From: a virus
Lineage: Duplodnaviria > Heunggongvirae > Uroviricota > Caudoviricetes
IMG/VR virus record: IMGVR_UViG_2917875804_000001
Direction: 5' to 3' (one strand)
Length of the DNA stretch: 40,512 nt
Shown: positions 32,273 through 34,185 of the stretch, in pieces
Layout of the letters: each line of letters begins with the position of its first letter
Position numbering within the stretch: the first letter of the stretch is position 1
Program-made: the position numbers and the translations under genes
The notes under the pieces: generated by a model
The model's input: the letters and a program-made list of their open reading frames with translations, nothing else
The model's database searches: none
What the model was told of the DNA's origin: nothing

Positions 32273-32383
32273 TATCAATTCCTATTGGTATTGCAATGAA
32301 TGGATAATAGCAATACGTATTAATCCAAGCAATAGCAAAACGTGTTTTGACCATCAATACGCAAGCGTATAAATTAAAAACTT
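32273..32383. promoter_or_regulatory. Divergent promoter/operator region between the cro-like and cI-like genes (OR analogue) with AATAGCAATA-type repeats
   Basis: AT-rich 110-bp intergenic region with repeated AATAGCAATA/TATTGCAAT motifs and an AATACGTATT palindrome. Confidence 0.5.
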
Positions 32384-33076
32384 ATGAAAAAAGAAACTCT
32401 TGCTGATCGCTTAAACCTAGCGATGGAACAATCTGGAATGTCTCAAGGCGCTCTTGCAAAGGCGTCTGGCGTAGCTCAACCCACAATCTGGAGACTGACA
32501 AGCGGCAACGCGCGCGGCTCAACAAAAATTGTTGAAATAGCTAATGCATTGGGTGTTCGAACAGAGTGGCTCTCATCAGGCATAGGCCCGATGAGAAATG
32601 ACGGTCAACAATCAGGGAAGCCTACTGTCAACCATTCCAAATACTTCAAGATTGACGTTCTTGATATAGAAGTGAGTGCCGGGCCGGGTGTCATCAACCG
32701 TGAGTTTGTAGAAGTCCTACGCTCGGTTGAGTACTCATTTGACGATGCTCGTCACATGTTCGATGGTAGGAAGGCGGAAAATATCCGCATCATTAACGTG
32801 CGTGGTGACAGCATGTCAGGAACGATCGAACCAGGTGATCTGCTGTTCGTTGATATCACGGTTAAATCTTTCGACGGTGATGGTATCTATGCGTTTCTGT
32901 ATGACGACACCGCCCATGTAAAGCGCCTGCAAATGATGAAGGATAAGCTGCTGGTTATCTCTGATAACAAGAGCTACTCACCGTGGGACCCGATCGAGAA
33001 AGACGAGATGAACCGGGTGTTCATCTTCGGTAAGGTTATTGGGAGCATGCCGCAAACTTACCGAAAACATGGTTGA
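32384..33076 (+). CDS. CI-type prophage repressor (N-terminal HTH plus C-terminal LexA/S24-type autocleavage domain)
   Basis: 230-aa ORF: N-terminal HTH (QGALAKASGVAQPTIWRLTSGN), C-terminal ...INVRGDSMSGTIEPGDLLFVD...VKRL... with the Ser/Lys dyad context; divergent from the cro-like gene. Confidence 0.85.
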   Translation: MKKETLADRLNLAMEQSGMSQGALAKASGVAQPTIWRLTSGNARGSTKIVEIANALGVRTEWLSSGIGPMRNDGQQSGKPTVNHSKYFKIDVLDIEVSAGPGVINREFVEVLRSVEYSFDDARHMFDGRKAENIRIINVRGDSMSGTIEPGDLLFVDITVKSFDGDGIYAFLYDDTAHVKRLQMMKDKLLVISDNKSYSPWDPIEKDEMNRVFIFGKVIGSMPQTYRKHG

Positions 33077-33115
33077 GTTTTAAACCATTTTTTAGATTTA
33101 TAAGGGATGTGAGTT

Positions 33116-33367
33116 TTGGGTTTTTCTTTAATAAACATAGATATGGGTGATGAAACAGTCCCTAAATCTATAATTGCCGCCCATTCGTTTTGGAGCGACA
33201 TTTACACCAAGTCACCTTTTCTTGGTGCAATGCTTGTTCTTTCACTTCCTGTCATTATCATTTACTTAATTTATACATGGGGTAGTATACGAAAAAGTGA
33301 ACGACTTCTCGATGAGAGAGTCAATGATATCAGAGCAAGGCAAAAGAAACGGAAAGGAGGTAAGTAA
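33116..33367 (+). CDS. Small membrane protein co-transcribed downstream of the repressor (likely start at internal ATG near 33140)
   Basis: 83-aa track ORF with one central TM helix (FLGAMLVLSLPVIIIYLIYTW) and a basic C-terminus; occupies the lambda rexA/rexB position. Confidence 0.45.
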   Translation: MGFSLINIDMGDETVPKSIIAAHSFWSDIYTKSPFLGAMLVLSLPVIIIYLIYTWGSIRKSERLLDERVNDIRARQKKRKGGK

Positions 33368-33880
33368 TGATGACGTGGATTTATGCCGCTGTTGCCAGTG
33401 CTTGCGTGCTTTCTTATTGGATTTTCTGTAGAAAAAAACGCCCTAAAACACCAAGCGAAAGCGGTTGAGATGCTTAGTACATTCCTTAATGATGAAAATT
33501 TATCAGACAAGGAAAAAAATAAAATGTACCTAAATTACAAGCTAATGCGGATGTGGTTCGCATTGCCATTGATGCTCATAGCTTCTCCATTCATTATCGT
33601 GTTTTATTTAGCCTCCAGCAAAAATAAACCCGAGGATATTATCAAGGAGAACTCTGAGGAATTTGACCGCTTTTTCGCAGTTTTAATGCAAATGTACATG
33701 GCAAAAAACCCTATAATTTCAATGATATCCATGACATTATTCGGATTTATTTTAGCTATATTTCTAGTTATTGGCTCTGTTTTGAACAAAGCATCAAAAA
33801 TCCCTAATTACACGATGCTGCTTTCCGGAGTGATCACAAAAATTGTTGCACTAAAATTAAAAGAAAAGCACGCTCACTGA
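33368..33880 (+). CDS. Membrane protein (SieB-like by position only, not by recognised similarity); 5' end ambiguous between two overlapping frames
   Basis: Track ORF 33383..33880 (165 aa, multiple TM helices). A 33-codon hydrophobic ORF from ATGATG at about 33368 overlaps its start in another frame across an A7 run. Confidence 0.45.
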
Positions 33881-34039
33881 TATGACAGACCCGGCCACCG
33901 TGCCGGGTTTTCTTTTGTCCCCTCCCCTCATCACACACCGTTCAAAAAAACCACCACAACCTCGCTTCAGTTATAGCTATGCGATTCAAGTCACAAAATT
34001 AATTCTTTTTGCTATCAAACAGTTAATATCAAAACACAT

Positions 34040-34095
34040 CAATCAATAGCAATAAGTATTGATATCACCAATAGCAATAGCTATCATCACCATAT
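34040..34095. promoter_or_regulatory. Putative OL/pL operator region carrying the same AATAGCAATA motif as OR
   Basis: CAATAGCAATAAGTATTG and CCAATAGCAATAGCTATC motifs about 100-150 bp upstream of the first pL-operon ORF. Confidence 0.4.
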
Positions 34096-34185
34096 CGCAA
34101 CAACACAACGATACGGCAACCACCTGATTCACCGTTGCGATGACCGCTTAGATCCGCAGCTTGAATTTCAGCAGGCTACGGGGGA

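Follow-up and report, generated by a model that had tools for sequence, protein, structure and literature searches.

Candidate CI and Cro operators in the ST104-type immunity region of a lambda-like Escherichia coli prophage

In the prophage CP-933P of Escherichia coli O157:H7, the proteins PaaR2 and YdaS footprint four 18-bp palindromes placed over PRM and PR, and a PL promoter bearing similar sites is repressed by both of them (PMC8630535). A distinct repressor specificity was listed by Casjens and colleagues for phage ST104, from sequence only and with its operators undescribed, the ST104-type Salmonella P22-like phages being ST104, SE1, ST160 and Para1 (PMC2629481). Here, we describe the repeats found on both sides of the immunity region of IMG/VR virus record IMGVR_UViG_2917875804_000001 (Caudoviricetes), a lambda-like prophage whose orientation is opposite to the lambda map and whose whole analysed stretch of 40,512 bp is called the window. 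Judging from its sequence, its immunity is of the ST104 type. With high confidence, we regard the repeats as the operators of the CI repressor of this prophage and, very probably, of its Cro. Motif counts and alignments indicated that the sites exist, cluster at two control regions only, overlap promoter hexamers and track the CI/Cro recognition helix across phages.

A preliminary description of this DNA had noticed a 9-10 bp motif shared by the gap between the divergent cI and cro genes (111 bp) and the region upstream of the pL operon, and had proposed that it marked the right and left operators (OR and OL) of one repressor. Counted over the whole window, exact AATAGCAATA occurred three times (32306-32315, 34045-34054 and 34070-34079), its copies being confined to the cro–cI gap and to the region upstream of the leftward early genes. 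Nine matches were obtained at one mismatch against 2.36 expected, a number reached in 0/100 shuffles, and five of them fell in the two regulatory gaps; CAATAGCAA had three copies against 0.33 expected, all within the same cro–cI and pL-side gaps. The search for all copies in the window thus bore out both the clustering and the coordinates of the preliminary description, since the motif is not similarly frequent elsewhere. The partial palindromes that it had seen in TATTG partners were also real, as in ATCAATA...TATTGAT at 34042-34063 and other inverted arms, and a direct spacing of 25 bp was present at OL. A control in which the described motif was not used, and all 5-mer gapped palindromes were enumerated, placed AATAC/AATAG-N6 at the top, with four copies in the 212 bp of OR and OL against one in the other 40.3 kb.

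The 10-mer is real but is not the whole site, as it covers one half and the centre of a longer unit. This unit is a pseudo-palindrome of 18 bp, YAATAS-N6-STATTR, which is written out as [C/T]AATA[G/C]-N6-[G/C]TATT[A/G] and has an A/T-rich centre, frequently CAAT. At up to one mismatch, this pattern had six matches against 0.75 expected (six reached in 0/100 shuffles), of which five were regulatory (32276-93, 32305-22, 32355-72, 34044-61 and 34069-86); the sixth, at 1370-1387, lies inside an open reading frame (ORF) and was discarded, as it fits the chance expectation of about 0.75 matches. When two mismatches were allowed, 32330-47 and 34000-17 joined the matches. The earlier count of at least two sites per side held, but 32355-32372 and the weaker OL sites had been overlooked, and OR comprises four sites; 32355-72 had been missed because its centre, GCAAGC, does not contain the GCAATA string. 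The most informative half-site bases were ATA, and the two ATA are 11 bp apart, as expected of a dimer with 434-like helix-turn-helix (HTH) domains. A position weight matrix (PWM) trained on the five obvious sites proved overfitted, with a mean shuffle maximum of 12.1, and gave the OR3-like site too low a score on account of its different centre; it was rejected and replaced by the half-site pattern and by comparison across relatives. Far from the immunity region, the 18 bp at 28199-28216, CAATAATACTTATTATTG, form an almost perfect palindrome, the ends of which resemble those of the operators and which has two mismatches to the pattern.

The four OR sites have their centres 29, 25 and 25 bp apart, while OL presents two strong sites 25 bp apart, in addition to weaker ones lying another 20 and 44 bp upstream. 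The sites, with mismatches to YAATAS-N6-STATTR, and the promoters that they overlap are the following:

32276..32293: fourth OR site, CAATTCCTATTGGTATTG; transcribed cro leader, downstream of the pR -10; 1 mismatch; 29 bp from the OR1-like site
32305..32322: OR1-like site, TAATAGCAATACGTATTA; spacer and first half of the pR -10; 0 mismatches
32330..32347: OR2-like site, CAATAGCAAAACGTGTTT; overlaps the pR -35 and abuts the pRM -35; 2 mismatches; 25 bp centre-to-centre from the OR1-like site
32355..32372: OR3-like site, CAATACGCAAGCGTATAA; inside pRM (spacer and -10); 1 mismatch; 25 bp from the OR2-like site
34000..34017: candidate fourth OL site (low confidence), TAATTCTTTTTGCTATCA; 2 mismatches
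34024..34041: OL3-like site, TAATATCAAAACACATCA; degenerate in the window, left half alone kept; 4 mismatches
34044..34061: OL2-like site, CAATAGCAATAAGTATTG; right half overlaps the pL -35; 0 mismatches
34069..34086: OL1-like site, CAATAGCAATAGCTATCA; spacer and first half of the pL -10; 1 mismatch, 0 in most relatives
32304..32332, minus strand: putative pR, TTGCTT-17-TATTAT; assigned by eye, kept in relatives, geometry as pL
32347..32375, plus strand: pRM-like promoter, TTGACC-17-TAAATT; promoter scan, 9/12; at a fixed distance to the ATG in relatives
34059..34087, plus strand: pL-like promoter, TTGATA-17-TATCAT; promoter scan, 10/12, the best sigma-70 match of the region

These sites and promoters are arranged in a recurrent geometry. 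By direct reading, the OR1-like and OL1-like sites occupy an equal position relative to their own promoters: at pR and pL alike, the final 3 bp of the inner 14-mer are the first 3 bp of the -10, and the partner site 25 bp upstream covers 3 bp of the -35. The OR2-like site reaches into the pRM -35 by a single base, so that its centre falls at about -43/-44 of pRM, close to the -42 of OR2 in lambda. Between the end of pRM and the cI ATG lie 8 nt, with no Shine-Dalgarno sequence, and the cI mRNA is therefore predicted to be leaderless or nearly so and to start at about 32381-32384. The lambda cI mRNA is a precedent for such a transcript, and another was shown for CP-933P paaR2 (PMC8630535).

The comparison across relatives, which had also been suggested at the outset, covered 25 loci for site mismatches and spacing, 94 distinct pooled site sequences, and an alignment of 32 distinct OR sequences, which came from prophages of E. 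coli, Salmonella, Klebsiella, Enterobacter, Kluyvera, Citrobacter, Proteus, Providencia, Morganella and Serratia. The CI recognition helix AQPTIWRL is common to about 30 Enterobacterales prophages, from Salmonella (Salfasec13b and the ST104 group), E. coli, Klebsiella, Kluyvera, Citrobacter, Enterobacter, Yokenella, Raoultella, Buttiauxella, Proteus, Providencia, Morganella and Serratia. In all of them, sites were found at about -107, -78, -53 and -28 from the cI ATG, together with an OL triplet spaced by 20 and 25 bp, and the half-sites were kept in every relative with this helix while the centres varied. The conserved blocks of the 32-OR alignment corresponded exactly to the half-sites and the promoter hexamers, the inter-site segments and the centres being variable. 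Among the 94 pooled sites, information peaked at half-site positions 3-5 (A-T-A) and at the central A and T; as these sites were chosen with the pattern itself, positions 1-6 are partly circular, whereas positions 7-9 are not.

Individual sites followed the same trend. The OR1-like half-sites were invariant in 25 relatives (mean 0.08 mismatch), and the OR3-like half-sites were kept around centres that vary (GCAAGC, TCAAGC, GCATGC, GGCAAC and others). The OR2-like site pairs a strong left half, the CAATAGC of which was invariant in relatives, with a weak right half. A second palindrome, CAAAAC-GT-GTTTTG (32336-32349), lies in this weak right half, just upstream of and overlapping the pRM -35, and it is nearly invariant in Enterobacteriaceae relatives (two loci are short of one base), more than a poor half-site seems to need; a likeness of the right half to a LacI/PurR-type box was considered and dropped because the spacing is unsuitable. 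On the left side, pL reads TTGMTA-17-TATTAT in relatives, the OL2-like to OL1-like distance was 25 bp in 25/25 loci, and in the relatives a good site, with a mean of 1.7 mismatches, occupied the OL3 position at a distance from OL2 of exactly 20 bp. The asymmetric centre of OL1 was reversed in many relatives (CATTG/CAATG rather than CAAT), which fits symmetric recognition.

The two outermost sites are of unequal standing. The fourth OR site is probably an operator site: its proximal-half GTAT was invariant in the 32 aligned relatives, with variable flanks, its distal half shares bases with the cro Shine-Dalgarno sequence, and it resembles IR4 of CP-933P (PMC8630535). The candidate at 34000-17 was the top PWM match outside the training sites, although its score of 13.5, against a mean shuffle maximum of 12.1, is no better than shuffled sequence; its GCTATCA half is kept in relatives, and the site stands at the left edge of an OL patch that is swapped in phage PhiR5_1. 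Beyond the fourth OR site, an extra good operator-like 18-mer was found in the first cro codons of Salfasec13b (CAACAGCTTTTTGTATTG, L003 2360-2377) and of a Providencia prophage (CAATTGCTTTTTGTATTG, L035), in the latter about 144 bp upstream of the cI ATG; the window has the half-site TAATAC alone at the corresponding place (32236).

The exchange observed in PhiR5_1 linked the motif to the regulatory proteins. The identity of this phage to the window is 97% over 29920-32014, which includes P, O and the ydaT-like gene, and 96% over 32624-33074, which encodes the C-terminal domain of CI; both OL flanks match as well, but cro, OR, the CI N-terminal domain and, on the left side, about 34000-34093 alone are different. 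Both exchanged patches bear ACAACC-type repeats. Thus, the motif follows the pair formed by the CI N-terminal domain and cro, independently of ydaT, the replication genes and the host. The more distantly related Gilliamella prophages, with the helix SQPAIQKL, carry three ATAAC-N4-GTTAT sites spaced by 25 and 24 bp. The operator half-site therefore co-varies with the recognition helix, being alike in about 30 same-helix loci and changed in PhiR5_1 and Gilliamella. The assignment of the repeats to OR and OL of one repressor, as first proposed, is supported by these helix-tracking half-sites together with the promoter overlap and the following gene context:

29759-30460, minus strand: P, replication gene
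30457-31476, minus strand: O, replication gene
about 31473-32013, minus strand: YdaT-family CII analogue
32044..32272, minus strand: cro of the YdaS/P22-Cro type; frame broken by an extra T at 32221-32226
32384..33076, plus strand: cI, 230 aa; Pfam HTH_3 and Peptidase_S24
33116-33367 and 33383-33880: two small hydrophobic cargo ORFs between cI and OL
33887-33910: terminator
about 34000-34090: pL promoter region, preceding kil, gam, bet and exo

The proteins encoded on both sides of OR are consistent with shared operators. The N-terminal 60-66 residues or so of CI align with the 434 repressor DNA-binding domain (PDB search, E about 1e-5) and place AQPTIWRL at residues 31-38, while the C-terminal part aligns with UmuD (E about 1e-4); the translation presents LexA-type cleavage and catalytic motifs, VSA99-G100PG, GDS143M and VK180RL (Ala99-Gly100, Ser143 and Lys180). 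Downstream of pR, Pfam matches to PF15943 (9.6e-15) and PF06254 (7.2e-30) correspond to a YdaS-family Cro and a YdaT-family CII analogue. When the cro frame was restored by reference to relatives, Cro read ...SQKRLADLCGVAQPTVWRW... and showed 32% identity to the CI HTH over 65 residues (E = 4e-9), with the common motif SQ..LA..GVAQPT(I/V)WR; Cro and CI of ST104 likewise have their HTH sequence in common. Such likeness is the usual signature of two proteins reading the same operators.

By analogy with lambda, 434 and CP-933P, CI dimers would cooperatively fill the OR1-like and OR2-like sites, 25 bp apart, and the OL1-like and OL2-like sites, and the filling of these pairs would block pR and pL. 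At the OR2-like site, CI would also stimulate pRM, leading to the production of the leaderless cI mRNA. The OR3-like site, being inside pRM, would mediate negative autoregulation and is a likely preferred target of Cro, whereas the fourth OR site in the cro leader may add to the repression of pR and cro. The OL and OR clusters, separated by 1.76 kb, may loop. Upon SOS induction, RecA-stimulated self-cleavage at Ala99-Gly100 would inactivate CI.

Some observations weigh against the assignment of the repeats to CI and Cro. A literature search found no binding or reporter data for ST104-type immunity, and searches by operator strings and by ST104/immC operators returned nothing relevant, with no publication found that prints or analyses them. 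For looping, the activation of pRM, cooperativity and the order in which the sites fill, there is analogy only. At the level of sites, pR matches the consensus at 8/12, below the scan threshold, and was hence uncalled, and the right halves of the OR2-like and OL3-like sites are poor. The conservation of the fourth OR site may be partly translational, given its overlap with the cro Shine-Dalgarno sequence. The AAATTC half of 34000-17 is also found in the heteroimmune PhiR5_1 and is thus not immunity-specific, the GCTATCA half alone being so. Finally, CI and Cro are inseparable by comparison because both always swap together, and the register of the sites is not unique, for a 12-bp palindrome, CAATAC-GTATTG, offset by 6 bp, is present at the OR1-like site and OL2.

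This last feature bears on how the sites are to be read. It is possible, albeit doubtful, that the operators follow a 4+4 layout, with the ribosome-binding site of the cro leader covered by one site and with one far-upstream OL site, in which CI and Cro might use different registers (the 18-bp outer half-sites and the CAATAC-GTATTG 12-mer); if true, such a two-register switch would work by another mechanism than the 3+3 octamer-plus-tetramer loop of lambda. A related and improbable explanation is that the functional unit is the 12-mer itself, or a direct hexamer repeat (CAATAG-CAATAN), with CI and Cro bound in different overlapping registers. Indeed, the OR1-like site, OL2 and, in this lineage, OL1 can each be divided into two forward hexamers and a reverse one, many relatives have as their OL2 a palindrome of 24 bp in which two 18-mers overlap, and a mix of direct and inverted repeats was also remarked by the CP-933P authors (PMC8630535). 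However, the central CAAT hexamer is missing from the fourth OR site, from the OR3-like site and from OL1/OL3 of relatives, all of which keep their outer half-sites. Moreover, in the 12-bp register the ATA cores would be 5 bp apart and on opposite helix faces, which is atypical for a 434-like dimer, whose geometry is known from the structures 2OR1 and 1RPE in the PDB. Both the 12-bp and the direct-repeat registers are less likely than the 18-mer.

It is very unlikely that the motif binds no protein and merely reflects common ancestry or duplication of pR and pL, two look-alike AT-rich promoters. The strongest copies do overlap -10 and -35 hexamers in AT-rich regions, and the OR1-like site and OL2 have the same CAAT centre in all relatives. 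Nonetheless, palindromic half-sites are kept around wholly different centres in the OR3-like site and in OL1 and OL3 of relatives, the OL1 centre is reversed in many of them, the half-sites change with the recognition helix while the hexamers remain sigma-70-like, and the fourth OR site stands outside every promoter hexamer.

Binding by another regulator, either the YdaT-type CII analogue encoded beside cro or a host factor, is hardly credible, because the ydaT-like gene of PhiR5_1 is about 97% identical to that of the window and yet the YAATAS motif is absent from its OR and OL, and because a host factor would not account for why heteroimmune phages of these hosts have lost the motif. The targets of YdaT proteins are indeed inverted repeats of 18 bp interrupted by 6 bp, which in CP-933P read TTGATT-N6-AATCAA (PMC9986795), and TTGATTTGTCATTATCAA at 32261-32278, one mismatch from that sequence, spans the cro start codon, but the CP-933P YdaT motif was not enriched in the window, with 3 matches against 2.6 expected. 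TTGATTTGTCATTATCAA, which overlaps the edge of the fourth OR site, may thus be a chance match.

With CI and Cro retained as the proteins reading these sites, the locus can be compared with described switches. ST104 is the nearest, with a CI 85% identical and an identical HTH (the first 60 residues differ outside the HTH only) and a Cro 69% identical, and within the ST104 group the OR1-3-like and OL1-3-like sites are kept in Salfasec13b. In contrast, the Salmonella phages carry the module beside the P22-type genes 24, c1 and 18, while the window is a lambda-like E. coli prophage, of Bievrevirus-like kind, in which the module is accompanied by O/P of the lambda type and a YdaT-type CII analogue. 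HK022 immunity, suggested by the ST104 GenBank note describing cI/cro as "similar to HK022", was rejected, as HK022 CI is 41% identical, mainly in the C-terminal part, and its HTH differs.

CP-933P shares with the window a YdaS-family Cro, a YdaT-family CII analogue and a leaderless repressor gene (PMC8630535, PMC9986795), and the four-site OR layout has already been described for it, its intergenic region having one palindrome over PRM, one over PR and two with a single well-conserved half. However, the CP-933P consensus is of the GTTTAGTAA type rather than YAATAS, its sites are equally spaced rather than 29/25/25 bp apart, and PaaR2 is small (about 15 kDa) and followed by the toxin-antitoxin pair paaA2-parE2. 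A PaaR2-type module was thus rejected for the window, in which a 230-aa CI with an S24 domain, two hydrophobic ORFs and another consensus were found instead.

The 434 switch has a homologous CI N-terminal domain in which the Gln at the first recognition-helix position is kept, and its recognition helix is shared by Cro and CI, as in the window. The inner 14 bp of the window site (ATAS-N6-STAT) has the same 4+6+4 geometry with an A/T-rich uncontacted centre. Despite the homologous fold, the specificity is another, since the 434 half-site is ACAA (ACAA-N6-TTGT over 14 bp) against ATA[G/C] with a YA flank, and its helix is TQQSIEQL against AQPTIWRL. Moreover, the 434 OR has three sites against four, and the window Cro belongs to the YdaS/P22-Cro family. 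The imm434 specificity was accordingly discarded for the window, whose sites read ATA[G/C]-N6-[G/C]TAT, and its phage and 434 are predicted to be heteroimmune.

From lambda, the locus preserves the divergent cI and cro, operators over pR, pRM and pL, strong sites 24-25 bp apart, an OR2-like site abutting the pRM -35, a repressor with S24 autocleavage and cargo in the rexAB position. The operators are unlike those of lambda, as had been remarked from the start: their consensus is unrelated to that of lambda and differs also from 434 ACAA-N6-TTGT. The DNA-binding domain is not lambda-type either, and the window has an extra cro-leader site, a YdaT-type CII analogue and no N gene between pL and kil.

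Other features of the region concern its integrity and its cargo. The closest phages, PhiR68_2, PhiR30_1, 4A7 and Lambda_4C10, show about 96-97% DNA identity in the immunity region, the cargo excepted. Relative to PhiR68_2 and 4A7, five homopolymer runs in the window are one base longer (31919-31925, 32221-32226, 32376-32380, about 33944-33950 and about 34180-34184), two of which break the frames of the ydaT-like cII analogue and cro; a 521-bp segment with three of these runs is 3 bases shorter in all eight of the closest matches listed among 717 full-length-match E. coli genomes. These expansions are due either to an error in sequencing or assembly, or to decay of the prophage, which would then be cro-/cII-. 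The two cargo ORFs, in the rexAB position, match unknown-function PHROGs alone, and the same slot is occupied in PhiR5_1 by a HipA-like toxin-antitoxin pair, in 4A7 by an ASCH-domain protein. The segment between cI and OL looks like a swappable moron slot, whose genes possibly serve exclusion or defence.

On the leftward side, no N-like gene is found between pL and kil (34088-34572). The pL leader of about 280 nt has a perfect 8-bp inverted repeat (34094-34101 / 34134-34141), although its fold is unexceptional (z = -1.3), and an Rfam scan of 31000-35500 gave sub-threshold chance matches alone. The last 77 aa of the ORF at 34186-34572 belong to the Kil family, and its in-frame upstream extension includes an arginine-rich KRTRERR stretch.

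Altogether, the switch follows lambda/434-style logic and is nothing unusual in a temperate phage, where such a feature is expected, and the general understanding of lambdoid switches is left unchanged by the operator model. Its type is nevertheless common while biochemically uncharacterised, the OR DNA of ST104-type immunity being present in 719/5426 complete E. coli genomes. The outcome is a concrete operator model, YAATAS-N6-STATTR with eight mapped putative sites, from which a homoimmune group including ST104, SE1, ST160, 4A7, Lambda_4C10, PhiR68_2 and many Enterobacterales prophages is predicted. Such a model may be useful for predicting superinfection immunity and prophage cross-talk, for prophage annotation, and as an orthogonal repressor/operator pair for synthetic circuits.

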